Origin: Dehalococcoidia bacterium
Lineage (GTDB): Bacteria; Chloroflexota; Dehalococcoidia; UBA2979
Reading direction: 5' to 3'
Length of the DNA stretch: 64,000 nucleotides
NCBI GenBank assembly: GCA_045562675.1
Contig: JBJKVL010000008.1
Location: 131,775 to 195,774 of the forward strand
Within the stretch, counting starts at the first letter, position 1. Each line of letters starts with the position of its first letter. Below are positions 7,149-52,353 of this stretch, piece after piece. The notes under the pieces were generated by a model, which saw only the letters and a program-made list of their open reading frames with translations, was not told where the DNA came from and made no database searches. The translations under genes were made by a program, and so were the position numbers.

Positions 7149-7158
7149 TTTATTTTCC

Positions 7159-7938
7159 TTAATTTGTAGTTGAAATTATTGTTTCAATTGCACTGTTGTT
7201 AAATATATCACTAATTATACTTTTACGTTCACTATTTGCAATATGACATTTGACTCCAGACTTAGCTGCGATGATTGCATTTTCAACTTTTGGAATCATG
7301 CCATCTACAATAATTTTTTTCATAATTAATTCCTCAGCATGGTCTGGTGTTAAATTATTAATTATTTTTCCATTTTCATTTTTGACACCATCTACATCTG
7401 ATAACAATATACAGTCTTTTGCATTAGTTGCAATAGCTAAAGCAATTGCAGCGGTATCAGCATTCACATTTAAAATTGCACTTTCTTGATCCAGAGAGGC
7501 TGCTATTGGAGCAATAACTGGTAAATATTTACTATTTAATAGATCTTCCAGTATGCTAGTATTCACTTTTTTGATTTCTCCTACGTAACCAATATTCATA
7601 TTAATTGTTTGAGCTTGAAATAAATTATCATCGACTCCAGCAATGCCAATTGCTCGTAAATCAAATTTATTTAATTCTGCGACAAGCTGTTTATTTGTCG
7701 TTCCTGCTAAGGCACCAATAACAATATCTAAAGTGATTTCATCAGTATATCTTAGTCCTTCTACAAACTTTGTTTCTATATTCATCCTGTTTAGCCAATT
7801 AGAGATTAATTGACCTCCCCCATGCACAATGATAATTTTTGAACCTATTTTGACATGCTTTGCTATTTCTTCAATAATTTTTATGTAATTTTTTGAAGAT
7901 GAGCCACCGATCTTGATAATGGTTAATGATTCTGACAT
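7159..7938 (-). CDS. argB: acetylglutamate kinase
   Basis: 259 aa. Amino-acid kinase fold with IIKIGG...IIVHGGG motifs, in an arg operon context. Confidence 0.9.
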   Translation of the reverse strand: MSESLTIIKIGGSSSKNYIKIIEEIAKHVKIGSKIIIVHGGGQLISNWLNRMNIETKFVEGLRYTDEITLDIVIGALAGTTNKQLVAELNKFDLRAIGIAGVDDNLFQAQTINMNIGYVGEIKKVNTSILEDLLNSKYLPVIAPIAASLDQESAILNVNADTAAIALAIATNAKDCILLSDVDGVKNENGKIINNLTPDHAEELIMKKIIVDGMIPKVENAIIAAKSGVKCHIANSERKSIISDIFNNSAIETIISTTN

Positions 7939-7952
7939 ATTTTTTCCATTAG

Positions 7953-9182
7953 CTATGTTGTATATTCACTATTAATTTTTACATATTCTTGCGTTAAGTC
8001 ACATCCCCACGCTACAGCATTAGCTTGTCCGTCATTCAGATCAATTGAAATGATGACAGTATCGCCATACATTTCATCAACGGCCTTCGCAGCATTACTA
8101 AACAGAGGTTTGCCATTTTCATAAACTTTGATTTCGCCAATATGTATGGAAATTTTATTCTCATCCATACTTGGTAGTGCATTACCTAAAGCAGTGATTA
8201 TTCTTCCCCAATTTGGATCTTTACCTTTGACCATTGTTTTAATCAAAAGTGATGAAATAATTGATCTTGCTGCATGCTTAGCTATCAAATCAGAATTTGC
8301 TTGATTAATCCTTGCTTCAATCAAACAAGTCGCTCCTTCGCCATCACTCGCAATACTCTTTGCTAAATATATACATACTTCTTGTAGTGCATCTTTGAAT
8401 AAGTTACTTAATGGATGCTTTTCGTCGATAGTTTCTTCTTTAGAGTTTTTCTTTGAAATTAACGCAACTATATCACAGGGCGAAGTATCCATATCAACAT
8501 CTATCATGTTAAATGAGGTATTTACAGATTCAGTTAATATTTGATTAGCCCATTTTGGGTCTAGTGGTGCGTCTGTTGTAAGAAAAGCTAGCATTGTTGC
8601 TAAATTAGGATGAATCATTCCAGCACCTTTAGCACATCCAGCAATGATATATTTTCTATTTTCGTACTCTATTTCTAGTGCAATTTCTTTTGGTTGTGTG
8701 TCTGTAGTTAATATCGCATTAGCAAATTCATTACCTTGTAATTGATTTAAAGTAAAACTTTCAACACCAGCTTGAATTAAGTCAACTGGTAATTCGATAC
8801 CAATAATACCAGTTGATGCAATGTATATTTCCTGAGTATTAGCTTGAATTTTTTTTGCTACTGATGATGCTAATGCTTCTGCATGCTTATAGCCAATTGC
8901 TCCGACTGCCGTATTTGCATTTCCTGAGTTCACTAATAATCCACGAAATGGTTTATTTTTTTCCAGTAAATTCATTGTCCATTTTAAGGATTCTCCTTTT
9001 AATTGATTTTGCGTATACTTAGCAACAAAATTACAAGTTTCATCAGAGTAAAGTAGCGCAAGGTCTTTTTTCTTGTCAGATTTGATACCAGCAGTGATGC
9101 CTTCAGCATAAAATCCATTTGGCGATGCAATATGACCGTCTTTAATTTGTTTAATTGCAAATGACTCAACTTGATCATTCAT
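7953..9182 (-). CDS. argJ: bifunctional ornithine acetyltransferase / N-acetylglutamate synthase
   Basis: 409 aa. Contains the autoproteolysis site context HPNLATMLAFLTTDA (A|TML). Confidence 0.92.
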   Translation of the reverse strand: MNDQVESFAIKQIKDGHIASPNGFYAEGITAGIKSDKKKDLALLYSDETCNFVAKYTQNQLKGESLKWTMNLLEKNKPFRGLLVNSGNANTAVGAIGYKHAEALASSVAKKIQANTQEIYIASTGIIGIELPVDLIQAGVESFTLNQLQGNEFANAILTTDTQPKEIALEIEYENRKYIIAGCAKGAGMIHPNLATMLAFLTTDAPLDPKWANQILTESVNTSFNMIDVDMDTSPCDIVALISKKNSKEETIDEKHPLSNLFKDALQEVCIYLAKSIASDGEGATCLIEARINQANSDLIAKHAARSIISSLLIKTMVKGKDPNWGRIITALGNALPSMDENKISIHIGEIKVYENGKPLFSNAAKAVDEMYGDTVIISIDLNDGQANAVAWGCDLTQEYVKINSEYTT

Positions 9183-39226: not shown

Positions 39227-40687
39227 ATGGATTTAAAAGAAAAATGTTTCGATTTATTACAACGTTCAGATTTTTTAACACTTGCCACTAGTGTATCTGG
39301 GAACCCCTCTGTAGCTAATGTTTATTTTGCTAATGATGGTTTTGATATTTATTTCTTTACTTTTAATCCAACAAGAAAAGCTGTGCAAATTAATTTCAAC
39401 TCTCAGATTCAATGTGTTATTCGACCTGAAAACGAAGAAGGTATTAAGGAGTTACAAATTGATGGCTATGCTACAAAAATTTCTGATAATAATGAAAAAG
39501 CAAAAGCTAAACAGGCAATTTTAAATGTCACTAAAGCTTTTGAAGTTTATATGAATGATGATTTTTTAATTGCTAACGATGTAGTTGGTTATTATAAAAT
39601 TCAACCAACTACAATTAAATATGTTGACTTTTTTGCAGAAACAAAGTTTGAATGGATTGAATTTCCAGAAAACAAGCCTGGTTTTATTAAACAGTTCGCC
39701 AGTGGAATTTTGAACAAATTGAAATATTTTATGACTATTGTTCGTGCTCCATTTTTAACTGCGACTATTGCCCCAATACTTTTAGGTTCTTCAATTGCAT
39801 ATTGGGAATTTAGCCAATTCAATTGGAATATTTTTTGGCTTACCCTTTTTGGTGGTATTCTTGCACATTGTGGGACTAATATGATTAATGATTATTTTGA
39901 CCATACTTCTAGGAATGATGAAGCAAATAAACTTTTTTCTCCATTTAATGGAGGCTCTCGAGTGATTCAGTCGGGCTTGATGGCACCGATGAATGTTTTA
40001 ATCGGCTCTTTAGTTTGTTTTTTGTTTACAATTATCATTGGACTTGAATTAAATTCTCAAGTTAATGGTTCATTTTTTGCGACTTCACCTTTACTTTATG
40101 TTGGTATCATCGGAATCTTTCTAGCTATTATGTATACCGGCTTTCTAAGATTAGCTTATAATGGCCTCGGTGATTTGGCTGTTTTTTTAGGTTTTGGTCC
40201 AGTTATGGTTTATGGTTCAGCATATATACAGAATCAAGCAGTTGATTTTTTAACAACTATGCTCGTATCTATTCCTGTAGGAATATTTATAGCTTTGGTT
40301 TTATTTATTAATTGCTTTCAAGATTATAAAGCAGATAAATCAACAAATAAAAATAGCTGGGTCGTTAAATTAGCTGGCCCTGATGATAAAGCTAATTATC
40401 GTAAACCATTTAATGTTTGGCAATTTTTTATGATTGTGGCTTTCCTTTTTATTGCATTGAACGCGATGTTTATTAATGCTTTAACTGGAATTGCATTATT
40501 GCCTATGGCATTATTTTATTTTGGATTAAAAAAGGGCAGAGCTTGGCTTATCGAATGGGAAAAAGAAGATGCTAATGTTGACTATCTTCCTTATGAATTA
40601 TTGATTGTTAATGTCTCTACAATAGGGACACATTTTTTAACAGGAGTTTTGCTTACAATGGGCTTCTTATTAAGTGCTTGGTTGTAA
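39227..40687 (+). CDS. fusion protein: N-terminal pyridoxamine-5'-phosphate-oxidase-like (FMN-binding split barrel) domain + UbiA/MenA-type polyprenyltransferase
   Basis: 486 aa. Residues 1 to about 150 (LLQRSDFLTLATSVSGNPSVANVYFANDGFDIYFFT) look PNPOx-like. Residues from about 170 on have about 8 TM segments with NMINDYFDHTSRNDEAN and FQDYKADK, the Asp-rich UbiA motifs. Confidence 0.7.
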   Translation: MDLKEKCFDLLQRSDFLTLATSVSGNPSVANVYFANDGFDIYFFTFNPTRKAVQINFNSQIQCVIRPENEEGIKELQIDGYATKISDNNEKAKAKQAILNVTKAFEVYMNDDFLIANDVVGYYKIQPTTIKYVDFFAETKFEWIEFPENKPGFIKQFASGILNKLKYFMTIVRAPFLTATIAPILLGSSIAYWEFSQFNWNIFWLTLFGGILAHCGTNMINDYFDHTSRNDEANKLFSPFNGGSRVIQSGLMAPMNVLIGSLVCFLFTIIIGLELNSQVNGSFFATSPLLYVGIIGIFLAIMYTGFLRLAYNGLGDLAVFLGFGPVMVYGSAYIQNQAVDFLTTMLVSIPVGIFIALVLFINCFQDYKADKSTNKNSWVVKLAGPDDKANYRKPFNVWQFFMIVAFLFIALNAMFINALTGIALLPMALFYFGLKKGRAWLIEWEKEDANVDYLPYELLIVNVSTIGTHFLTGVLLTMGFLLSAWL

Positions 40688-41385: not shown

Positions 41386-41424
41386 AATCAGTTACTATAT
41401 ATATTAATTAAATTGGATTTATTA

Positions 41425-41877
41425 ATGATTAATTATAATAATAAAGTGGTTGGACAAAAAATTGATTTTGGTTCATTTGATGTCACAAAAGATTTAGTTG
41501 AATCTTATTGTTCATCAGTTAATGAAAACAACCCTTTGTATTTAGATGAATCAGTTGCAAAGCAATCTGTTTATGGCAAATTAATTGCTCCCCCTTTAAT
41601 TTTTGTTTCAGTGCAATTTGATGTCGAATTACCTGATCCAGAAGTAAATTTTGGTAATGCCCGTTTTTTAGCTGGTCAAAAAGTCGAGTCATTCCATCCA
41701 ATTTATATTGGAGATACTATTCAGGCAGTTGGTAGTATTACTGATGTCTATGAAAAGACAGGCAGGACAGGCACGATGGTCTTTGTAGTTAATCAAACAG
41801 AATATTTTAATCAAGACAATATACTCGTTGCAACTAGACAAGCATCTATGGTTCATAGGGAGGTTGAAAGTGAGTAA
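41425..41877 (+). CDS. MaoC-N/FAS1-like dehydratase hotdog subunit (partner of the next gene)
   Basis: About 150 aa. NPLYLDESVAKQSVYGKLIAPP pattern. Its stop overlaps the GTG start of the downstream gene. Confidence 0.65.
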   Translation: MINYNNKVVGQKIDFGSFDVTKDLVESYCSSVNENNPLYLDESVAKQSVYGKLIAPPLIFVSVQFDVELPDPEVNFGNARFLAGQKVESFHPIYIGDTIQAVGSITDVYEKTGRTGTMVFVVNQTEYFNQDNILVATRQASMVHREVESE

Positions 41878-42313
41878 TCAATTACTTTTTGCTGATGTTG
41901 AATTGGGTCAGGAATTTTCTGATAGTTATATCGCTAGTTCAGAAAAAGTACAGCAATTTCTTGATGCAAATAGGACCTTGGAAAGAACTGAAATCGAAGA
42001 TGGCAGATTCACAAGCAAGGAAGGTGCATCAACTTTAGGATTAGAAAAACCGATTTTGCCTGGAGTGATGAGTATGTCCATAATAACAAAACTAGTTACT
42101 GATATTATTGCCCCCAATGGCAAACTGCATAAATTTGATGCAAGCTTTAGAAGGCCAGTTTTTCATAATGATGCTTTGAAATTGTCTGCTTTAGTTGTTG
42201 ATACAATTATTGAAGAGGGAAAAGGCATTATTAAACTAGATGTTGCCCTTGAGAATGATAGAGGAGAAAAACCCTTACAAGGTACTGCGGTAGTTGAATT
42301 ACCAGTTAAATAA
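41870..42313 (+). CDS. MaoC-like hotdog dehydratase subunit
   Basis: GTG start at 41870 with GGAGG 8 nt upstream (VSNQLLFADVELGQEF...). The ORF-track start at 41828 overlaps the previous gene. Confidence 0.6.
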   Translation: MSNQLLFADVELGQEFSDSYIASSEKVQQFLDANRTLERTEIEDGRFTSKEGASTLGLEKPILPGVMSMSIITKLVTDIIAPNGKLHKFDASFRRPVFHNDALKLSALVVDTIIEEGKGIIKLDVALENDRGEKPLQGTAVVELPVK

Positions 42314-42315
42314 AG

Positions 42316-43104
42316 TTATTTTGATTTTTTCTTGCTAAATTCTTTTGGACCGGCCTTTGCTTCATCTGTTTGTCCAATAATCCATCTAATTGCATGCCCC
42401 ATCCTTAATGCTTCACTTAAAGACAGATCACGTGAATGATTTGCGATTTCTTTAGCACCAATTATTGCCATTGGTGCATTCGCAGCAATATCGCTAGCAA
42501 TTTCTTTTGCAACGTTTAATAAATTTTCAGGAGTGACAATTCTTGAAATAACTCCCCAATTCAATGCATCTTGTGCAGAGTAACTATTACCAGTTAGTAC
42601 CATTTCCATTGCAGGGGCTTGCGGAATAGCTTTTAAAATTCTTTGAATACCTCCACCACCAGGTACAAAACCTCGTTTTACTTCTGGTAATCCAAAAGAT
42701 GAACGTTCAGTTGCTATGCGGATATCACAAGTTAGTGCAAGTTCTAGGCCTCCTCCAAGGCAATATCCATCAATAGCAGCAATCATGGGTTTTCTTACGG
42801 GTATTGTAAAAAAATTATCAACAGGGTTATGATTAATGAATTCCTCAACAAGACCACCAGATGCTCCAGTTGAACCAGGTTGTGACCATTCTTTCAAATC
42901 AGCACCAGCGCTAAACGCTTTTCCTCCAGCTCCCGTAATTATTCCAACTTGAATGTCCGTATCATTATGAATTCTACTCAATGCATCCATTAGAATATCA
43001 CGAGCTGCGCTATTGAGTGCATTCATTGCTTGCGGCCTATTTAATGTAATAAGCCCAACTTTATCTTCAATTTCAAAAATCACTGGTGAATCATTATTCA
43101 TCAA
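42316..43104 (-). CDS. enoyl-CoA hydratase/isomerase (crotonase) family protein
   Basis: 262 aa. ITGAGGKAFSAGADL and AAIDGYCLGGGLELAL oxyanion-hole motifs. Confidence 0.88.
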   Translation of the reverse strand: MMNNDSPVIFEIEDKVGLITLNRPQAMNALNSAARDILMDALSRIHNDTDIQVGIITGAGGKAFSAGADLKEWSQPGSTGASGGLVEEFINHNPVDNFFTIPVRKPMIAAIDGYCLGGGLELALTCDIRIATERSSFGLPEVKRGFVPGGGGIQRILKAIPQAPAMEMVLTGNSYSAQDALNWGVISRIVTPENLLNVAKEIASDIAANAPMAIIGAKEIANHSRDLSLSEALRMGHAIRWIIGQTDEAKAGPKEFSKKKSK

Positions 43105-43121
43105 AAAACTCTCATAATTTT

Positions 43122-43535
43122 TTATAGCTTAATTTCTACTTCTACAGGTTTAAGCACGTCCCTATTGTCTTTTTCAACTTTAACATTAATTAAGACATTT
43201 AGCACAGTCATATTGTTCACTAATCTAGAATCCGCAACATCAAAATCAAATTTGACTGTTTCACCTATCATTACCATGGATAGATATCTTAGTTTCATTT
43301 TTACTATAGATGCATTTTGACCTAATTCTGATATCAAGTGTTTTGCAATTATTGCTCCAAACATTTGGCCATCAACAATTGGTTTATTAACGTTTAATTT
43401 TTCTTTTACAAATTGAGAATCATAATGAAATCTATGAAAATCCCAAGTTGCACCAGCATAAGACACTAATAACTGAGGTGTTATATGTATTGATAAACTT
43501 TGAATTGTCAATTTTTCTTTCATTATTATTCTCAA
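43122..43535 (-). CDS. MaoC-like hotdog dehydratase subunit
   Basis: 137 aa. WDFHRFHYDSQFVKE...IVDGQMF hydratase-2-like motif. The true start may be the internal ATG (MKEKL). Confidence 0.65.
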   Translation of the reverse strand: MRIIMKEKLTIQSLSIHITPQLLVSYAGATWDFHRFHYDSQFVKEKLNVNKPIVDGQMFGAIIAKHLISELGQNASIVKMKLRYLSMVMIGETVKFDFDVADSRLVNNMTVLNVLINVKVEKDNRDVLKPVEVEIKL

Positions 43536-44029
43536 TTAGTAGGCATGTATATCATGTCTTCAATATTTTCAGCTAATAAAACTTTGTCTTGATTAAAGTA
43601 TTGTATATTTGAAGAAATTATTAAAAATGCAGAATCTTTTCCTTGCTTCTCAATAATGTTTACAATTTTCCATTTAACCTCAAGCTTTGTTGTAGGAAGT
43701 AGTGGATGATAAATTTTATATTCATTGCCACCCCTCACAATGGAATATTCAACATCTAAGGGAATATCCCATGAATGACCAATATATCCTTGTTCATCCA
43801 TTGTTTTATTCATATATTGATTTGTTTCAAAAATAAATGTTGGCGGAGCCATTACGTTTGCCATTTTAGGCTGATCAAGTGACGATTGATTATCATCGAT
43901 TTGCTTTTTGTTATTAAGTGCTAATTCAAAATATCTGATAGAAGCAAAGCCAATTTCTTCATTAGCAAGATACGTTACCTCTTTTCCGATCATTTTCTTT
44001 ACCGCTTCAGATATTAAACTCATGCTCAT
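43532..44029 (-). CDS. MaoC-N/FAS1-like dehydratase hotdog subunit
   Basis: 165 aa. Overlaps the downstream MaoC gene by 4 nt. Same two-gene architecture as 41425-42313. Confidence 0.6.
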   Translation of the reverse strand: MSMSLISEAVKKMIGKEVTYLANEEIGFASIRYFELALNNKKQIDDNQSSLDQPKMANVMAPPTFIFETNQYMNKTMDEQGYIGHSWDIPLDVEYSIVRGGNEYKIYHPLLPTTKLEVKWKIVNIIEKQGKDSAFLIISSNIQYFNQDKVLLAENIEDMIYMPTN

Positions 44030-45144
44030 TCTTCCAATAGTGCTATTGTTTCAATTTCAATCATGAGGCCTTTTCTTATTAATCTTTCGCAGACAATTCC
44101 AGTAGAAGTTGGGAAAGGGGAGCTCAATAATTTTTTTCTAATTTTATCAGTTTTGGCGTAGCTAGGTAATCCGTCACTTGCAACATAATCTACTGTCCGA
44201 ACAATATTCTTTAAACTTCCACCACATGCCTTTAATATTTTATTGGTTTCTTTGAATATATATTCTGTTTGCTTTTCTATATCGCCTGGAAACAAAACAT
44301 CCCCAGTCGCATAATCAAAAGCAGCAAGCCCAGAAATAAAAATTAAATTGTTAGCTTTTATTGCTGGCGAAAAAGTAAGGGAGGGATGCCATTTTTTATA
44401 AGGGTTTACTATTTGCTTACTTGTTTTGGAGAGCGTAAAGTGTATTTGTATTAATTGATTATCTTCCATAAGCTTCTTCATAATGATTCCTGTAGATGCT
44501 GGATATGGTGCTGAAAAATACTTCTTTCTGATGGAATTAGTTTCTTTATATTCATGCAAAATATCTTTTCGAATAAATTCTGTTGTATTGACTACATTGT
44601 CCCAATTCATTCCTAATTGTTTAATTTCGTCATCAACCTCTTTATAAATATTTTCTGCTTGTTCTTCTAATGTTGCAAAAGTTTTACCAGTTTTAGAAAT
44701 ATACAAGAGGTCTCCTGAATTTGATAAATTGTTATAAATAATTTCAATTTCTATATGTGCTTCTTTTCTTAATAGTCGATTAGACATGATTTGAGTATGT
44801 GCAACTTGCTCATTTTGCAAAAATTTCTCTCTCGTCTGATTTATAAGTTCTATCTCTTCTGCAGCTTCTGGGGTGATGTATTCAATAAAATGCAAGATAC
44901 TTTGAGATTCAGATATTGCTATTATTGACTTAATTTTTTTGTATACAATATCTAGCTGCTCTTCTAATGTGCCTGCAGCTGAGACTATGTCCTTTTCTTT
45001 AATATATCTTGATGCAGTATGCCCAGATAAGAAAGTAAATTCTGGAGTATGCATTCCTAAGCTAAAACTATATCTTGAAGCGTCAAGCCAAGGAAATTTA
45101 TTTGGTTCCAATGCATATTGATGCTTGTTCATTGATTTATCCAC
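44026..45144 (-). CDS. triple-domain RidA/YjgF/RutC-family protein (three tandem Rid domains in one chain)
   Basis: 372 aa. Three successive Rid-like modules each end in an x-IEIE/IQIH-x strand: ...FLSGHTAS...LEEQLDIVYKKIKSI...AHIEIEIIY; ...LYISKTGKTFATLEEQAENIYKEV...PASTGIIMKKL...IQIHFTL; ...IFISGLAAFD...IEKQTEYIFKETNKILKACGGSL...PTSTGIVCERL...IEIETIAL. Confidence 0.7.
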   Translation of the reverse strand: MDKSMNKHQYALEPNKFPWLDASRYSFSLGMHTPEFTFLSGHTASRYIKEKDIVSAAGTLEEQLDIVYKKIKSIIAISESQSILHFIEYITPEAAEEIELINQTREKFLQNEQVAHTQIMSNRLLRKEAHIEIEIIYNNLSNSGDLLYISKTGKTFATLEEQAENIYKEVDDEIKQLGMNWDNVVNTTEFIRKDILHEYKETNSIRKKYFSAPYPASTGIIMKKLMEDNQLIQIHFTLSKTSKQIVNPYKKWHPSLTFSPAIKANNLIFISGLAAFDYATGDVLFPGDIEKQTEYIFKETNKILKACGGSLKNIVRTVDYVASDGLPSYAKTDKIRKKLLSSPFPTSTGIVCERLIRKGLMIEIETIALLEE

Positions 45145-45947
45145 TTTGGTTTTCGTTTTTCTTTATATGCATCCAAAGCTTCTGTTGCATCAAGAGTCTC
45201 TCGATTAATTTTTTGTAGTTCATAGATTTTTTTCATTGATGAAGATAAATCATTTTCCAAGGCATGTGTTATTGATTTCTTAAGTTCTTTTGCTGTAAGT
45301 GGCGGCACATAAGTTGCTATTTCTTCAGCAATTTCATAACATCGCTTCATTAAATTTTTTTCAGAGGTTATTTCATTTATAAAACCAAGCTTCAGAGCTT
45401 CTTCTGCTGATATGGTTGATGCTGTCATTGCCCATTGGAATGTTTTAGGATAACCAAGAATATCCAATATTAATTTCAAGCTTCCGTCATCAGGCAAAAT
45501 GCCTCTTCTGGCAAAAACCCATGCAAATTTTGATTGTTCATTTGCAATTCTAATATCACATGCAGCTGCAAGGCCTATGCCTGAACCAACTGCTGCACCA
45601 TTTATACCACCAATAATCGGTTTTTGTATATTTCTCATGAGATAGGTAACTGCTCGAATATCGGAGATGTGTTCAGGTAAATCATTAGTAGTAATTGGCT
45701 CTTCTGGTTCTAGTGCTTTGCCCTCTTGAACCATTTTTTTTATGTTGCCACCACCACAAAATACATCACCAACAGCAGAAAAAATGATCACTCGAACGCT
45801 ATCATTTGTATCATATTCTGTAAGTACATTGATAATTTCTTGATTCATATCAAAATTGACAGCATTTTTATTTACTGGATCATTAATCAGTATTTCTGCT
45901 ATGCCAATATCGCTAATGTGGGTCGTAATATATTTATTTTCTTTCAT
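45129..45947 (-). CDS. enoyl-CoA hydratase/isomerase (crotonase) family protein
   Basis: 272 aa. FSAVGDVFCGGGNI and GGINGAAVGSGIGLAAACD motifs. Confidence 0.85.
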   Translation of the reverse strand: MKENKYITTHISDIGIAEILINDPVNKNAVNFDMNQEIINVLTEYDTNDSVRVIIFSAVGDVFCGGGNIKKMVQEGKALEPEEPITTNDLPEHISDIRAVTYLMRNIQKPIIGGINGAAVGSGIGLAAACDIRIANEQSKFAWVFARRGILPDDGSLKLILDILGYPKTFQWAMTASTISAEEALKLGFINEITSEKNLMKRCYEIAEEIATYVPPLTAKELKKSITHALENDLSSSMKKIYELQKINRETLDATEALDAYKEKRKPKWINQ

Positions 45948-45970: not shown

Positions 45971-48379
45971 TTAATTAAATATGTTTTTTTCTTCTAATTC
46001 TTCTATTTCTTTGCTGGATAGATGCAGGACATTTGCAAGAATTTCTTGAGTATGCTCACCTAATAATGGTGCTGGATTTAATAATGATTTTAAATTGTCG
46101 ATGTGCCAAGGTACGCCAGGATGCTTAACTTTTCCTCCAGTTGGATGTTCGGTTTCAATAATAAATTCTCTATGTAAGAGTTGAGGATCAGATAATAAGT
46201 CATCTGGCTGTAAAATTGGACCTGATTTAATTCCTTTTTTTTGTAACTTTGTTGTTAATTCAAGGTTAGTAAATGATTGCGTCCAAGATGCAATTATATT
46301 TTCTAATTCATCTTCATGTTTTTTTCTATTCTCATTTTTATTGAATTTATTTGAGTTAAGGATTTCACTAGCTATACAATCTTTTAATTGCTCCCATTCT
46401 TCTTCAGAAGTTATTGAAATTGCAATCCATCGATCATAACCTTTAGTCGGAAAAAAACCATGCGGTGCATACTGATCACTTCTATTACCAATTCTGCTAT
46501 GCTGGACATTGTTTAATGTCGTATCGATAATAGCATTTGGAATTAAAGTGAGCATTGGTTCAAACATTGAACCATCTATGTATTGCCCTGTGTTTGTTAA
46601 TTGAGCATCGATTAGTGATGCTATAATTGCGAAAACACCATAAGACCCTGCCAATGGATCTGGCATCACCGCTCCTAAAATTCTAGGCATGCCATCTTGA
46701 TAGCCAGTTAGCTCAGCTACTCCACTAAATAAATTAATTGCACTATGTAATCCGCCATGACTTGCCATTGGCCCACTTCTACCAAAGGCTCCAAGTGATA
46801 ATTGTACAATTTTAGGGTTTAATTCTCTAATGGTTTCTTTAGAAAGACCTAGCTTACTCATTACGCCTGTTTTGAAGTTATCTACCACTACATCAGCAGT
46901 TTTAATAATTTCTTTTGCAAGCTTTCGAGCTTCTTCGTTTTCTAGATCTAGCTGGATACTTTTTTTACCTTCGTTTAATAAATTGAAGTGGCCACTGTTA
47001 TTATAGTGGTCCTCATTATTAGCAAACGGAGCTGTCACGCGAGTAGTCATATGTTTGCTAGTTTCAAATAGAATAACTTCTGCACCCATGCGTGACAGCC
47101 ATTGCGTTGCAAATGGAAGAGCAACCACTTGTCCGAAGTCAGCTATTCTTATTCCTTGCAAAGGCAGCGTTGATTCTTTATTTTCTATTTCATGCAAAAT
47201 AAGAGGATGCCTCTCGGATGACCATTGTAGATCATTATTAGATTGGTCTGGGTTTATTGAATGAATTTGAATTGGTGTTTTTTCTAATTTCATTTGTGGA
47301 CCAGGCATACTAAATTTCTTTTTGTTGATATTTAGATTTAAAATACTTTCACGTTGTTTAACATGCTCAGAATTAAGCATGTCGCGAATACTGTAATATG
47401 CAAAAAATGGCAAACCATTTTTATCAGCTAATTGAATAATCTCTTTTCCAGATAACTCCATAGTCCAATTGATAATTAATTGCCTCAAGGCATCCCAATT
47501 GGCTGTTCGATCGTACACATTAGCAAAAACTTCAGAATCTGCCCAATCTGGATTATCCATCATAATTTTCAATTTCTCCCATTGATGATCCCAAGGTGCA
47601 GCAATTGCAACATACCCATCTTTACAAGGAACATAATAATTTGGCATTCTTGATAATGACGTTGGCAATCGTCCAATAAGTAATTCCCCATAGGCCCAGG
47701 CAGTTAAATCCCTTTGTTCATAAGAAGCGACTGCTTCTTGTATGCTGACATCTACATGATGCCCATTCCCACTGTTGATTCTCTCAAATAATGCTAGGAT
47801 CGTTGCATCAGCACCTACAATTCCAGCAATGGATTCAGCAATATTTGTATTTGGATGTAATGGTGGCTCATTTTCTTGGTCAGTAACTACATCTGGTACT
47901 CCAGGAGAAGCATATGCCATGCCACTCATAGCATATACAATTAATTCATCAGCAAAAAAATCTGAATAAGGACCATCTAAGCCAAATGGGGTAATTGTAG
48001 TAAAAACTAATTTTTTAAATTGTGTAGTAATTGTTGCTGGGGTTAGCCCGATTGCATCTAAATCAGCAAATGAAAAATCTGTAATCAAAATATCAACAGT
48101 ATCTAAAATATCCAATAATTTTTCAAAGTCAGGTTTGTCATAAACATCAAGAGTAACTGATCGTTTATTTGTACTCGTATAGATAAACGATCCACTAAAT
48201 TTTAGGTCCTCTTGATTATCGGGGAATGGTCCCATTTTTCTTAGTGGATGGCCATCGTGATTCTCGATAATGACAACCTCTGCGCCATAATCGGCAAATT
48301 GCTTTGCTGCAATTGCACCGCTGAATCCTTTTGTTAATTCAAGGACACGTAATCCTTTTAGTGCAGAAGAGTCACTCAT
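45971..48379 (-). CDS. tandem-domain family III (CaiB/BaiF) CoA-transferase (two complete domains fused)
   Basis: About 802 aa. Domain 1 begins LKGLRVLELTKGFSGAIAAKQFADYGAEVVIIE. Domain 2 begins LQGIRIADFGQVVALPFATQWLSRMGAEVILFE. Start taken at ATG 48379 (MSDSSALKG). The ORF-track start at 48454 overlaps the upstream gene. Confidence 0.8.
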   Translation of the reverse strand: MSDSSALKGLRVLELTKGFSGAIAAKQFADYGAEVVIIENHDGHPLRKMGPFPDNQEDLKFSGSFIYTSTNKRSVTLDVYDKPDFEKLLDILDTVDILITDFSFADLDAIGLTPATITTQFKKLVFTTITPFGLDGPYSDFFADELIVYAMSGMAYASPGVPDVVTDQENEPPLHPNTNIAESIAGIVGADATILALFERINSGNGHHVDVSIQEAVASYEQRDLTAWAYGELLIGRLPTSLSRMPNYYVPCKDGYVAIAAPWDHQWEKLKIMMDNPDWADSEVFANVYDRTANWDALRQLIINWTMELSGKEIIQLADKNGLPFFAYYSIRDMLNSEHVKQRESILNLNINKKKFSMPGPQMKLEKTPIQIHSINPDQSNNDLQWSSERHPLILHEIENKESTLPLQGIRIADFGQVVALPFATQWLSRMGAEVILFETSKHMTTRVTAPFANNEDHYNNSGHFNLLNEGKKSIQLDLENEEARKLAKEIIKTADVVVDNFKTGVMSKLGLSKETIRELNPKIVQLSLGAFGRSGPMASHGGLHSAINLFSGVAELTGYQDGMPRILGAVMPDPLAGSYGVFAIIASLIDAQLTNTGQYIDGSMFEPMLTLIPNAIIDTTLNNVQHSRIGNRSDQYAPHGFFPTKGYDRWIAISITSEEEWEQLKDCIASEILNSNKFNKNENRKKHEDELENIIASWTQSFTNLELTTKLQKKGIKSGPILQPDDLLSDPQLLHREFIIETEHPTGGKVKHPGVPWHIDNLKSLLNPAPLLGEHTQEILANVLHLSSKEIEELEEKNIFN

Positions 48380-49259
48380 TTTCTTCCTCGTCAGGCAACA
48401 AGGCAGATTTTGACCAACTTCTTGGATCTCTTGATGGCCATGAATCATCTTCAACTTGATTTAAAAATTTTTCAATCATTTGATTAAATAGATCAGGCTC
48501 TTCAAGATTTACGGTATGTCCAGTATTTGGAACAATAAATAATCCAGATGTAGGAATACATCTTTTCATAAAAATCGATGGTTCAAGACAGGGCTCATCT
48601 TCATCACCAGTAATTATTAATGCAGGTATATTAATTGCTTTCATTTCTTTTTCTAAAGAAAGAATTGAAGGTCGATTTCTTTGAACTCCTAACATTGTAT
48701 TAGCATGTCCTAAAGATGAAGAATTTTGAAAAAGTCTCTTAAATTCTTCCCAAGCTTTTCGGTCTTTGTTTTGAAGTTGAACTCTCGTAGCACTGATAGT
48801 ATAAACATCTCCAAATTTTTCGATACCTTCTTGAAGTATTCGATTTGCAACATGCTCTGCATCTTTTTCAAAATTACTACGGTCTTTTGTGCTGCCATAT
48901 CCAACGCCCGCAATTGTTATAGATAAACATCTTTCAGGGAACTGAATCCCAAACAAAAGAGTAGCATAACCGCCCATCGACAATCCTATAATGTGTGCTT
49001 TTTCAATATTTAATTCATCTAATATAGATAGAATATCCTGTACAGCAATGTCTTGCGAATAACTTTTCTCTGATTCTGGTACATCAGATGGAGGATAGCC
49101 ACGAGCATTATAGGTAATTGCTTGATATTTTTCAGAAAAATATTCAACTTGCTTTGCCCAACTAGCGTGCTCTCCAGCAAATTCATGTACAAATACTACT
49201 GGAATTCCTGAACCAGTAACTTCGTAATATAATTGCACGTCATTATTTGTTAGCGACAT
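48372..49259 (-). CDS. alpha/beta-fold hydrolase (enol-lactonase/esterase-like)
   Basis: 295 aa. HEFAGE oxyanion region, nucleophile elbow GLSMGG, and C-terminal NTGHTVNLEEP. Confidence 0.82.
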   Translation of the reverse strand: MSLTNNDVQLYYEVTGSGIPVVFVHEFAGEHASWAKQVEYFSEKYQAITYNARGYPPSDVPESEKSYSQDIAVQDILSILDELNIEKAHIIGLSMGGYATLLFGIQFPERCLSITIAGVGYGSTKDRSNFEKDAEHVANRILQEGIEKFGDVYTISATRVQLQNKDRKAWEEFKRLFQNSSSLGHANTMLGVQRNRPSILSLEKEMKAINIPALIITGDEDEPCLEPSIFMKRCIPTSGLFIVPNTGHTVNLEEPDLFNQMIEKFLNQVEDDSWPSRDPRSWSKSALLPDEEENE

Positions 49260-49287
49260 TGACTATTTTTCTCTTTTTAATTATGAA

Positions 49288-50289
49288 TTATTTATTTCCG
49301 AATGTTTCAAAAATCCCGTCATAATATTGGAGATTCACCTCATGCTCAACGCCATGCCTTGGAGAAAAGAAAATAACTCTATCTAAAACCCCGTCATATC
49401 TGCCTACTTGGTCTCGAACATCTTGTGGAGTTCCATATAAACAACATGAATTTAACATATCATCACTAATTGCATCAGCAACATTTTCCATATCACCTGT
49501 ACGAAATGCTTCTCTTACTTCAACTTTTTCTTTTTCCCATCCTCCAGCATCAAAAATATTATCAAAGGCTTTTGGAGAAAGATAAAAGCCAAGATTCTTT
49601 GCCGCATCACGTCTTGCAATAGATCTGTCTTTATGAATTGCTGTAATCACATCACTGGAAAAATTAAATTCATTTCTTTCTCTCGATCGCTCTTGTAAAC
49701 CTTCACCAATAATTGGAAGCACTGAATTTTTAAGATGTTGCATGCTATTAATTGGATGACCAATTAAACCATCAGCGACACGCCCTGCTACTTTTAATGA
49801 AAACTTATTAACCGCAGCTAAATATATTGGTAGTGGATGCTTGCAAACGATACCTCTCGATCCTCTAAGTTGAAAGAATTTTTTTTCCCAAACCACAGGT
49901 TCTCCATTTAATGACATTACATGTTTAATCAATTCAATAAATTCTTGTACTCTTGGTGCGGGATGCTCAGCTTGATCACCAAAAATTCCGAAAAAACGAT
50001 TTAACTGTGGTTTTACTCCTGATCCAATGCCAAACATGCATCTGCCATCAGATAATTCTTGGAGATCGATCATGCTGACGATGTGAGCTATTGGATTCAT
50101 TAAAGGTTGCACAACTACAGCAGTGCCAAGTTTGATTTTTTTTGTTGCTTGAGCAAAAGCTGCTAGTCTTACGTATCCTTGCGGACCACTGACCCATGCA
50201 CTTTCAAATCCTGCTGCTTCAGCTTTTTGAACTATTTTTAGCCCTTCATTAATAGGAATTTCTATTGGGGCGATTCCATATTCTGGCAT
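49288..50289 (-). CDS. luciferase-like monooxygenase (LLM) family oxidoreductase (flavin or F420 dependent)
   Basis: 333 aa. LLM TIM-barrel pattern AEAAGFESAWVS...IKLGTAVV...FGIGSG. Confidence 0.78.
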   Translation of the reverse strand: MPEYGIAPIEIPINEGLKIVQKAEAAGFESAWVSGPQGYVRLAAFAQATKKIKLGTAVVVQPLMNPIAHIVSMIDLQELSDGRCMFGIGSGVKPQLNRFFGIFGDQAEHPAPRVQEFIELIKHVMSLNGEPVVWEKKFFQLRGSRGIVCKHPLPIYLAAVNKFSLKVAGRVADGLIGHPINSMQHLKNSVLPIIGEGLQERSRERNEFNFSSDVITAIHKDRSIARRDAAKNLGFYLSPKAFDNIFDAGGWEKEKVEVREAFRTGDMENVADAISDDMLNSCCLYGTPQDVRDQVGRYDGVLDRVIFFSPRHGVEHEVNLQYYDGIFETFGNK

Positions 50290-50346
50290 AAATTTCTCCT
50301 TAATTGTTATTGAATAAAGATAGCTTGATTATCTACACATTGTACA

Positions 50347-51435
50347 TTATTGAAATGCAGGAATAATTTCTTTTCCAAATTTTTTCATTGATTCTTGTAC
50401 TTTTACTTGATCCATGTCGCCCCAATCAAAACAAGCCATTAAGGAACGGATATCTTTTTTATCAAGTTCGTCAATTTTTTCTTTTACAGTTTTTACTGAA
50501 CCATAAATAACACCTCTTTGTAGGTAATCGGCAACTCCCTCATCTGGAGTAAAAACTGGGGAGCTCCATTTTTGTGAATCGTGACCCTTGGCTTTTTCCT
50601 CTTGATTGCTTTCCTCTGGGTTAAATTTTGCTCGTGTAGTTAGTAGATGTTTACGCAGCCTGTGTGTAGGCTCTTGGACATTTTCATAAGCTTCTTCATC
50701 TGTCTCAGCAACATGAATACTGCGTTGTAAAGTGGAAATGTTTAAATTATTTTGTACACTTTGCTCAGAATGACCAGCAGACTCCATTTGTTCTTTATAG
50801 AAATTTAATCTTTCTACTGCTATTTCAATTCCCATTCTTGGGAGCATAATTGGACAATTGTTAATTGCTGCCCATGCTAATGTTTCGTTAGACGAACCAG
50901 ACATTTGGATGAGAGGATGTGGTGTTTGTACTGGCTTTGGTCTTACGCCAGGTATTGAAAGATTGAAAAAATTGCCATTATAATTTAGCGGCTCGCCATT
51001 TGCTTGCCATGCTTTTTTCATATAATCAACTCCTTCAAACATGCGTTCTCTATGTTCAGTTTCATCGCCATCAACTCCGAATGCTACATATTCAAATTCG
51101 TTAAATTTTGAACCACGCCCAATTCCTACAGTTAGTCTTCCATTCAATAGATTATCCAATAAGCTTGTTTGTAAAAGAATACGAGTTGGATGATGGATAG
51201 CCATTTGCAATATAGCAAAACCTATTCGTATTTTTTTTGTTCTTTGTGCAAGCGCTGCAGCCAATGGTATGGGGTCTCCATATGCGTCTTCTCCAGTAAA
51301 GTTATGCTCAGTCAACCAAGCACATTCAAACCCAAGATTTTCTGCTAATTCAATACAGTCAAATTGCTGATTAATAACTCTGTAATCTTCTTCTGGAGAT
51401 GGACTTAATGGCAAATGAAATGTTCCAAACTGCAT
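50347..51435 (-). CDS. luciferase-like flavin-dependent monooxygenase (LLM family)
   Basis: 362 aa. MQFGTFHLP...AENLGFECAWLTEHNF...IRIGFAIL...VGIGRGS. Confidence 0.8.
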   Translation of the reverse strand: MQFGTFHLPLSPSPEEDYRVINQQFDCIELAENLGFECAWLTEHNFTGEDAYGDPIPLAAALAQRTKKIRIGFAILQMAIHHPTRILLQTSLLDNLLNGRLTVGIGRGSKFNEFEYVAFGVDGDETEHRERMFEGVDYMKKAWQANGEPLNYNGNFFNLSIPGVRPKPVQTPHPLIQMSGSSNETLAWAAINNCPIMLPRMGIEIAVERLNFYKEQMESAGHSEQSVQNNLNISTLQRSIHVAETDEEAYENVQEPTHRLRKHLLTTRAKFNPEESNQEEKAKGHDSQKWSSPVFTPDEGVADYLQRGVIYGSVKTVKEKIDELDKKDIRSLMACFDWGDMDQVKVQESMKKFGKEIIPAFQ

Positions 51436-51495
51436 TATTTTTTCCTTTCAGATGGTTCGAATGTTAACAGTTTGATAATATGTTGTCTGTTGAAT

Positions 51496-52353
51496 TTATG
51501 CAAGTAAAACTGTTCCAACAATGACTTCTTCTTTATTATCTTTTTCTACCCATACTCTCAGCAATTTTTTATCTATTATTGAATAGAAAGCATTAATTTG
51601 TTCACCAGCCCAAACAGGCCTAACAAATTTTAAGCTCATCTTGCCACCTAGAGTAAATTGATTCTCAAAATCTTTTGCAAGCAATCTTGTTAGTAACCCA
51701 AAACCAAATGCCCCTTGTGATAAAGGACCTGGATTACCTTGCTTTTTTGCTAATGCAACATTTGTATGACCATTGACCTCACCAGGTCCTTCAAAGTCAT
51801 TCATTCGATCTTGTGATAACAACAACGCTAATCCTTTCGATTCCCATGATTCGGGACGAGGCGGAATAGGGATACTGGCTTCTTTTTCAGGATGGTTATT
51901 TATTTCTTCTTCTGGAATCGTAAAAAACCAGCTTCTTCTATTAGTTTGCAACAAGTTATCTTTTTCAAAAATATTGGTTTCCCACTCTACATATCCACGA
52001 CCTTTTTTTACAGATTTATTTGTTACTTTGCCTGTTACAGTTAGTGGAATGTCTCTGGGGATAGAGTCAAAGAAGTCAACTTCTAATGTTGCTAATCCTG
52101 CTGATATATCCCTAAAGGGCGTTAATACATTTTGTCCTGAATAATATGTAATATAATCTGGAGCATGAACTAAATATAAGCGAGCATCATCATTATATAA
52201 ATTGCACCATCTATCAATATTTTCTTCAGAGATTGTCATTGTACACTGCGAAGGCAAGGCGCCAAGTTTGAAATCTTCCCAATTTATGCTCTTTGAATCA
52301 TCTAGTTTTGGTATTTTATTTACTGCTGGTATTTCTATTAAATTGCTATTCAT
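51496..52353 (-). CDS. double hotdog-fold MaoC-like dehydratase
   Basis: 285 aa. The N-terminal and C-terminal halves each look hotdog-like (C-terminal half HTNVALAKKQGNPGPLSQGAFG). Confidence 0.6.
   Translation of the reverse strand: MNSNLIEIPAVNKIPKLDDSKSINWEDFKLGALPSQCTMTISEENIDRWCNLYNDDARLYLVHAPDYITYYSGQNVLTPFRDISAGLATLEVDFFDSIPRDIPLTVTGKVTNKSVKKGRGYVEWETNIFEKDNLLQTNRRSWFFTIPEEEINNHPEKEASIPIPPRPESWESKGLALLLSQDRMNDFEGPGEVNGHTNVALAKKQGNPGPLSQGAFGFGLLTRLLAKDFENQFTLGGKMSLKFVRPVWAGEQINAFYSIIDKKLLRVWVEKDNKEEVIVGTVLLA

Follow-up and report, generated by a model that had tools for sequence, protein, structure and literature searches.

What is a protein made of three Rid domains in one chain doing in a catabolic operon, when none of the three carries the arginine by which imine deaminase activity is predicted? 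This question is raised by a gene in a 64,000-nucleotide stretch of contig JBJKVL010000008.1 of a Dehalococcoidia bacterium (assembly GCA_045562675.1), here called the window, which encodes three consecutive YjgF/RidA-type modules (triple-Rid) and is followed by the genes of two small hot-dog proteins, hotN and hotC. The explanation that we consider best as a whole, with a rough probability of 0.55, is that triple-Rid is not a 2-iminoacid deaminase but a pseudo-trimer working with the hotN/hotC hydratase in the catabolism of coenzyme A (CoA) esters.

A preliminary description of the locus, made from the letters alone, had read three consecutive and diverged Rid modules in the open reading frame (ORF), and a scan with the Pfam profile PF01042 (Ribonuc_L-PSP) indeed finds three domains, not one or two. 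The whole protein scores 112.8 bits (E 1.3e-32) against a threshold of 27.3; the scores of the separate modules are listed in Table 1. In a self-comparison against shuffled controls modules 2 and 3 are 38% identical (z 23.5), modules 1 and 3 are 27% identical (z 11.4), and modules 1 and 2 are also 27% identical (z 5.4). Likewise, a profile of the family matches solved Rid proteins in each module: YabJ at profile positions 21-133 (61 bits), 5yu2 at 146-252, and many solved Rid chains at 274-386. Module 1, which carries an N-terminal FPW motif, is recognised only by the Pfam hidden Markov model and by the family profile, and a single-sequence search of the PDB with this module found no Rid protein. 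Module 2 is truncated and lacks the N-terminal strands and hairpin, the first ~28 residues of the domain being absent. The pattern SG...IEIE, which had been attributed to every module, does not appear in full in module 2, which reads ISKTG and LIQIH. The NCBIfam model TIGR00004 just reaches its cut-off (106.9 vs 106.25 bits), and does so only when the three domains are summed. In P0138, a metagenomic protein of 803 amino acids (aa), a single chain holds six PF01042 domains (411.7 bits), equivalent to two triple-Rid units one after the other.

The joining of three neighbouring Rid genes by an assembly or frameshift error, named in the preliminary description as a possible cause of such an ORF, is refuted and keeps a negligible probability. 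The frame is uninterrupted, the identical product of 368 aa (P0002) represents 32 database sequences on 2 contigs, and length and coverage are the same in a further 90 clusters. The linkers between the modules are short and are modelled with a predicted local distance difference test (pLDDT) score of 84-87, and the gene occurs in complete chromosomes as well as in cultured isolates. Altogether 91 homologues of 354-413 aa, at ~97% coverage, were recovered from metagenomes and genomes of many phyla, with genome labels that include Nitrospinae, Betaproteobacteria, Acidimicrobiales, Rhodospirillaceae and Bradyrhizobium, and a profile search of 1.84 billion representative proteins returned 490 of them at E<=1e-30. 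Among 201 sampled genomes from the class of the window the distribution is patchy: 27 genomes match at E<=1e-40, and 11 of these, the genome of the window included, hold a full-length match at E<1e-110. As judged from these searches, triple-Rid is a member of an uncharacterised family of proteins of about 355-415 aa that is widely distributed.

The fold was addressed with an AlphaFold2 model built on 83 homologues, which has a mean pLDDT of 93.6 and a predicted template modelling score (pTM) of 0.92, and in which the beta-alpha-beta-alpha-beta-beta pattern of the chorismate-mutase-like Rid fold is repeated three times. A pTM of 0.92 for a chain of three domains makes their relative placement confident, and the modules form one compact body, where the preliminary description had also considered that no trimer-like assembly might appear. 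When the model was compared with the PDB by Foldseek, the top seven matches were chorismatase chains of ~333 residues (4bps, 5a3k, 5ag3; E ~1e-14), which superpose on the model over 345-346 columns (TMq 0.55-0.57, TMt 0.60-0.63, root mean square deviation (RMSD) 4.3-5.4 A, 14-15% identity) and are the only multi-domain matches that span it entirely. Since the match extends over 346 columns, all three modules fit a solved single chain simultaneously. Single-domain Rid chains align with no more than a third of the model (TMq 0.31-0.33, TMt up to 0.92), and RutC, RidA and PH0854 superpose on single modules with TMt values of 0.85-0.92 and RMSD values of 1.3-2.8 A.

Chorismatases, the structures of which were solved in 2013-15, are single-chain pseudo-trimers of YjgF-like domains, monomers whose pseudo-threefold symmetry resembles the RidA trimer. 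A pseudo-threefold description is reportedly found in Juneja et al. (2014, J Mol Biol), and a RidA-trimer-like build with pseudo-threefold symmetry is said to be given by Hubrich et al. (2015, J Am Chem Soc 137:11032). FkbO, Hyg5 and XanB2 thus share with triple-Rid a single chain of about 330-340 aa with three YjgF-like domains, but differ from it in their low identity, in a profile match that is only marginal, and in genomic context and substrate. A further indication comes from the RidA trimer of Arabidopsis (AtRidA), which is held by a salt bridge between K136 and E182 of neighbouring subunits (PMC4960622). In the alignment of 83 family sequences the equivalents of K136 are mostly R/K in module 1 and K/R in modules 2 and 3, and those of E182 are E in module 1 and D/E in modules 2 and 3; the window protein itself has H85, N186 and R316 at the basic positions and E134, H235 and E365 at the acidic ones. 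We count the retention of this pair in most members of the family as independent sequence support for a trimer-like packing, and on the model and this support triple-Rid is very probably a single-chain, intramolecular pseudo-trimer of Rid modules.

At the place of the canonical P-A-R-S motif the preliminary description had read VAHT, PAST and PTST by eye. The alignment agrees, with His116 (module 1), Ser217 (module 2) and Ser347 (module 3) at the position of Arg105. In fact, the canonical Arg105 is absent from every module in 83/83 family sequences, the position being occupied by V/I/A/H/S in module 1, A/S in module 2 and S/A in module 3. This position is a published predictor of imine deaminase activity, and Rid7, which is without the Arg, is inactive (PMC4433059; PMC5619798). 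The published criterion argues against a RidA-type activity and is in line with the earlier suggestion that the missing Arg points to a function other than enamine/imine deamination. The same loss, with no imine hydrolysis expected, has been described for Rid4-Rid7 (PMC4433059, PMC5619798), but these are single-domain proteins with a Trp (Rid4, Rid7) or a variable residue (Rid5, Rid6) at the Arg position, unlike triple-Rid.

Nine to eleven residues upstream of the Arg105 position each module has an invariant Arg (in the numbering of the window protein R105, R206 and R336), present in each of the three modules of 74/74 core sequences and, for R336 of module 3, in 83/83 sequences. This relocated Arg aligns with Tyr154 of AtRidA, a residue of helix alpha2 that lies seven positions beyond F147 of the pocket. 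Module 1 has a further invariant Arg, R126. The equivalent of Glu120 is E132 in module 1 (E in 83/83) and E363 in module 3 (E in 80/83), and the same position in module 2 holds Gln233 in the window protein and Q in 57/83 sequences; the equivalent of Tyr17 is Y25 in module 1 and F258 in module 3 (Y in 61/83), and the corresponding loop is absent from module 2. These pocket-type residues are conserved across phyla at an overall identity of only 25-35%. In AtRidA, R165/T167 of one subunit bind the ligand and E180 of the neighbouring subunit lies close by; the clefts of Rid trimers bind many small carboxylates (PMC4960622). Because the Glu120 equivalent is kept only in modules 1 and 3, the three clefts are non-equivalent, as had been anticipated in the preliminary description, with two of them probably functional and the third, that of module 2, degenerate. 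Compared with the homotrimers of RidA, TdcF and AtRidA, triple-Rid retains the fold of the module and most equivalents of the K136-E182 pair, Glu120 and Tyr17, but its modules are covalently linked, differ from one another and lack Arg105, and module 2 has lost the N-terminal hairpin and the pocket Glu.

The idea of a covalent Rid trimer is right, but it was already published, both for the chorismatases and under the name 3x-RidA, which was given in 2015 to proteins with three Rid domains in tandem, seen as 'presumably covalently linked trimer units' and exemplified by EF_0115 of Enterococcus faecalis (Niehaus et al., BMC Genomics 16:382, PMC4433059). A search of the literature returned no paper on the Arg-less triple-Rid family and nothing beyond the 3x-RidA paragraph of that article. 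The likeness between 3x-RidA and the window protein lies in the tandem fusion of three domains; 3x-RidA was assigned to the RidA subfamily (PMC4433059), whereas the canonical Arg is missing from all three modules of the window protein. What is new in the window family is the lack of that Arg, the relocated invariant Arg, a triplication of its own and a conserved hydratase partner.

The genome of the window (1.07 Mb assembled, 78.6% complete, 33% GC) has three different triple-Rid genes, whose ORFs account for all of its eight PF01042 matches; no stand-alone single-domain Rid gene was found in this assembly or in any fetched locus. One paralogue is of the 3x-RidA type, and it was through its family, not through EF_0115 itself, that the comparison with 3x-RidA was made. 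This protein is 73% identical to one from a metagenome-assembled genome of Dehalococcoidia; its gene is followed by that of a Zn-dependent dehydrogenase and, unlike that of the window, has no hot-dog hydratase partner. When module profiles were compared by hhalign, the window family scored 184-237 internally and the 3x-RidA-type family 228-305, whereas scores between the two families were 104-175 and formed no module-to-module diagonal; in a maximum-likelihood tree of 63 modules, a branch with 96/97 support sets all those of the window family apart from the modules of the 3x-RidA-type paralogue family. The higher scores within than between families, the lack of a diagonal and the supported branch indicate that the window family arose by its own triplication of a Rid domain already devoid of Arg105, separately from the 3x-RidA-type paralogue. 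Gene conversion, which could be invoked as an alternative, is unlikely because the modules are only 27-38% identical. In the subgroup of P0007, P0051 and P0074 module 2 is complete, its N-terminal hairpin included, and in the tree it joins module 3 of these proteins (support 91/87) instead of module 2 of other members, which suggests that in this lineage module 2 may have been replaced or re-duplicated from module 3.

The third triple-Rid gene of this genome, also Arg-less, is flanked (L088:2054-9460) by a 475-aa ligase-like gene, in which only the AMP-binding C-terminal domain PF14535 was detected, and by an amidase gene, with an arylmalonate-decarboxylase-like gene further upstream; this context is of an amide or aryl-acid type, unlike that of the window.

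The partner genes hotN and hotC are recognised by PF13452 (28.2 bits) and PF01575 (47.2 bits), respectively. The ATWD-x4-H motif of hotC is conserved in five seed sequences, and its product weakly matches HadB (E 4.5e-3). For hotN no match was obtained among solved structures, and an NCBIfam scan returned no model for either protein. Neighbourhoods were examined in 80 named genome loci, among them complete chromosomes and cultured Bradyrhizobium isolates, which were fetched with patterns from the alignment of one closer subgroup and are hence biased toward it and mutually related. Of the 74 loci whose downstream sequence is long enough, 67 have triple-Rid, hotN and hotC in this order with almost no spacer, and the number rises to 69/74 when one fused hot-dog pair and one broken triple-Rid copy preceding the pair are added. 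In a locus from Bradyrhizobium mercantei SEMIA 6399 (L081:6893-8681), the triple-Rid frame is split into 6893-8131 and 8391-8681, followed by intact hotN-hotC, and may be a disrupted or insertion-carrying copy. Homologues at 25-33% identity also have the pair directly after triple-Rid (L001/L002, L004, L006), and a relative of the same taxonomic family (G180, locus L091) repeats the order crotonase, triple-Rid, hotN, hotC, crotonase. In a metagenomic locus (L089:3934-7209), an ADP-forming acyl-CoA synthetase with CoA_binding_2, Succ_CoA_lig and ATP-grasp_5 domains is fused to triple-Rid in one protein of 1091 aa (P0159), with a fused hotN-hotC gene after it and a crotonase gene and a divergent MmgE/PrpD gene before it. 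A distant group of 407-408 aa (P0082) has a different context, devoid of hot-dog genes.

In the window itself the frame encodes 372 aa from a GTG codon, and an ATG at 45132, four codons inside, forms an ATGA overlap with the stop codon of the upstream crotonase gene. Because of this overlap, and because the 368-aa form P0002 corresponds to the product read from this ATG, the likelier extent of the gene is 44026..45132, with 368 aa. As the triple-Rid stop codon overlaps the ATG of hotN in the same manner, the gene is overlapped at both ends.

Recurring neighbours across the loci are acyl-CoA dehydrogenases (37 loci), AMP-forming ligases (37), CoA-transferases (20) and luciferase-like enzymes (about 20), together with Liv-type ABC transporters and an old-yellow-enzyme-type reductase; an SCP-x-type thiolase and a DUF35 protein, which are also found in steroid side-chain clusters, occur in 11-13 related loci. 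A retro-aldolase or thiolase role for triple-Rid was considered and dropped, since the SCP-x-type thiolase and DUF35 genes sit alongside triple-Rid in some loci. No amine-generating enzyme (pyridoxal phosphate (PLP) enzyme, amine oxidase or aminotransferase) is among the recurring neighbour families around the 80 loci, and therefore no consistent source of imines is seen. Family-III CoA-transferases, MaoC hydratases and MmgE/PrpD neighbours led us to consider an itaconate or mesaconate pathway, but such thin evidence does not allow a substrate to be named.

The adjacent arrangement of a non-catalytic hot-dog gene (FAS1_DH_region) and one with the Asp/His motif is shared with HadAB/HadBC and ChsH1-ChsH2 of Mycobacterium tuberculosis, although the similarity of hotC to HadB is marginal. 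We know of no Rid-fold partner of HadAB or ChsH1-ChsH2. We hypothesize that triple-Rid works with a predicted HadAB-like, heterodimeric, (R)-specific enoyl-CoA hydratase composed of hotN and hotC, to which it is translationally coupled, either as a third subunit of the hydratase or as the enzyme of an adjacent step; a functional partnership of this kind has, in our judgement, about even odds. The rebuilt clefts could bind an anionic acyl-CoA or carboxylate intermediate and would carry out a chemistry typical of the fold, in which an enol- or enamine-like intermediate undergoes first a proton transfer and then either water addition or tautomerisation; the pathway would be a catabolic route for an organic acid. 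A bolder form of the hypothesis, which we put forward only tentatively, would make the Arg-less triple-Rid the third and obligatory component of an unrecognised three-protein enoyl-CoA system with hotN and hotC; its asymmetric, covalently fixed clefts, rebuilt around an Arg that moved out of the P-A-R-S loop into helix alpha2, would catalyse a reaction new to the Rid fold on a CoA thioester or its acid, and pseudo-trimers would have arisen convergently at least three times, in the window family, in 3x-RidA and in the chorismatases.

Several observations weigh against this interpretation. In one cluster (L003) the hot-dog pair lies within the cluster but not adjacent to triple-Rid, and no adjacent pair is found in L060, L074, L078, L083 and L084 or in three of the five Dehalococcoidia relatives examined (L092, L094, L095). 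The proportion of 67/74 overstates the independent support because the loci are mutually related and were fetched with the patterns of one subgroup. Among about 90 loci there is no fusion of triple-Rid with a hot-dog gene, and gene adjacency does not separate a catalytic role from a scaffold or ligand-binding one. As regards the protein itself, the pseudo-threefold packing is deduced from the pTM and from a chorismatase superposition with an RMSD of 4.3-5.4 A, and where the relocated Arg would lie with respect to the clefts is taken solely from the alignment to Y154 of AtRidA.

Among the other explanations, a non-catalytic protein is the one to be taken most seriously, albeit unlikely: triple-Rid might serve the hot-dog hydratase as a scaffold or adaptor, or be a small-molecule-binding regulatory or carrier protein for the substrate of the pathway. 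A scaffold has an analogy in the DUF35 domain, which docks the aldolase Ltp2 onto ChsH1-ChsH2, and strict gene order with translational coupling is typical of subunits of a complex; moreover, the catalytic Arg is lost in all modules, module 2 is degenerate, and the binding of small carboxylates by Rid trimers (PMC4960622) would suit a carrier. Nevertheless, the conservation of E132, E363, Y25, the three invariant Arg and R126 at 25-35% identity is more like that of an active or ligand site, and the lack of fusions to hot-dog genes speaks against this explanation as well. Because pocket-type residues are conserved, we favour a catalytic role over a scaffold role by roughly two to one, a preference that follows from the residue pattern.

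That triple-Rid is still an enamine/imine deaminase is somewhat less probable again. The relocated Arg of helix alpha2 would then supply the guanidinium group, and the role of triple-Rid would be either to shield the pathway from a reactive enamine or to deaminate a 3-amino-enoyl intermediate. The conserved equivalents of Glu120 and Tyr17 in modules 1 and 3, the invariant Arg of each module, the TIGR00004 score that just reaches its cut-off and the want of a stand-alone Rid gene in the genome are all compatible with such an activity, and the known chemistries of the fold are all enamine or enol-ether hydrolyses (PMC4433059). Against it stand the absence of the Arg that serves as predictor, the inactivity of Rid7, and a neighbourhood in which amine-generating enzymes do not recur; in addition, the 3x-RidA-type paralogue, with the Arg in two modules, can cover the RidA role. 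Very improbable is a chorismatase-type enzyme, similar to FkbO, Hyg5 or XanB2, that would cleave chorismate or a related enol-pyruvyl ether. Chorismatases are the best whole-chain structural matches of the model and are weakly matched by profile (5ag3/5a3k, E 4e-5; FkbO, E 4.5e-3), but these profile matches cover part of the chain, with FkbO out of register, the identity is low, and a Pfam scan of triple-Rid found no chorismatase domain. The neighbourhood showed no shikimate, polyketide or xanthomonadin genes, and the context is consistently one of acyl-CoA catabolism. The interpretation of triple-Rid as a pseudo-trimer acting with the hotN/hotC hydratase is thus the one that we retain.

Table 1. 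Coordinates of triple-Rid, its modules and neighbouring genes in the window, and of its paralogues in the same genome
Feature	Position	Strand	Remarks
Triple-Rid ORF	44026..45144	minus	372 aa from GTG 45144; stop codon 44026-44028; frame uninterrupted
Rid module 1, residues 1-139	44728..45144	minus	PF01042 alone 20.6 bits, E 4.6e-4, below gathering score
Rid module 2, residues 140-243	44416..44727	minus	PF01042 alone 35.4 bits, profile positions 29-112 only
Rid module 3, residues 244-372	44029..44415	minus	PF01042 alone 65.8 bits; most canonical of the three
hotN, 165-aa hot-dog subunit (FAS1_DH_region)	43532..44029	minus	without hydratase motif; start overlaps triple-Rid stop (ATGA)
hotC, 137-aa MaoC_dehydratase subunit	43122..43535	minus	Asp...His spacing of hydratase motif (ATWDFHRFH); 4-nt overlap with hotN
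Upstream crotonase-family enoyl-CoA hydratase/isomerase	45129..45947	minus	translationally coupled to triple-Rid; same order in relative G180 (L091) and in L089
Downstream crotonase-family enoyl-CoA hydratase	42316..43104	minus	
827-aa protein, two family-III (CaiB/BaiF-type) CoA-transferase domains	45971..48454	minus	first start codon uncertain; ORF overlaps next gene
Upstream operon part: alpha/beta hydrolase, two luciferase-like oxidoreductases, 285-aa MaoC-like protein	48372..52353	minus	
3x-RidA-type paralogue, 413 aa	L087:6122-7363 (G000:C10)		Arg kept in modules 2 and 3 (YPARAS, FPTRTT); TIGR00004 179.5 bits
Third triple-Rid paralogue, 432 aa	L088:6558-7856 (G000:C9)		without Arg; PAST, PAVT, PAVN at Arg position

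As listed in Table 1, the operon reads on the minus strand double hot-dog, two luciferase-like oxidoreductases, alpha/beta hydrolase, CoA-transferase, crotonase, triple-Rid, hotN, hotC and second crotonase, and these crotonases, hot-dog hydratases, CoA-transferase and luciferase-like oxidoreductases bear out the view of the preliminary description that the gene sits inside a CoA-dependent catabolic operon. The annotated TTG start of the CoA-transferase ORF overlaps the upstream hydrolase gene by 83 nucleotides and is probably too far upstream; the two CoA_transf_3 domains fused in the window are two separate adjacent genes in the related cluster L003. A second pair of the hotN/hotC type, with no triple-Rid, adjoins the operon on the opposite strand (41413-42313, plus; FAS1_DH_region 84.8 bits, MaoC 34.5 bits). 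Elsewhere in the window (39227-40687, plus) a protein of 486 aa combines an N-terminal PNPOx_N domain, similar to pyridoxamine-5'-phosphate oxidase, with a UbiA-family prenyltransferase membrane domain, an unusual pairing.

Rid proteins are found throughout life and, to our knowledge, no function has yet been assigned to any Arg-less lineage, be it Rid4-7 or others; if the three-protein enoyl-CoA system proposed above is real, it would provide the first. The module of triple-Rid, hotN and hotC is conserved from Dehalococcoidia to Bradyrhizobium, cultured hosts are at hand for genetics, and natural fusions tie triple-Rid to the formation of CoA esters. The fusion of a homotrimer into one chain, in which the interfaces are free to diverge, has happened more than once in the Rid fold. 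For the annotation of such genes, the labels 'RidA family protein' and '2-iminobutanoate/2-iminopropanoate deaminase' are probably wrong as statements of function.

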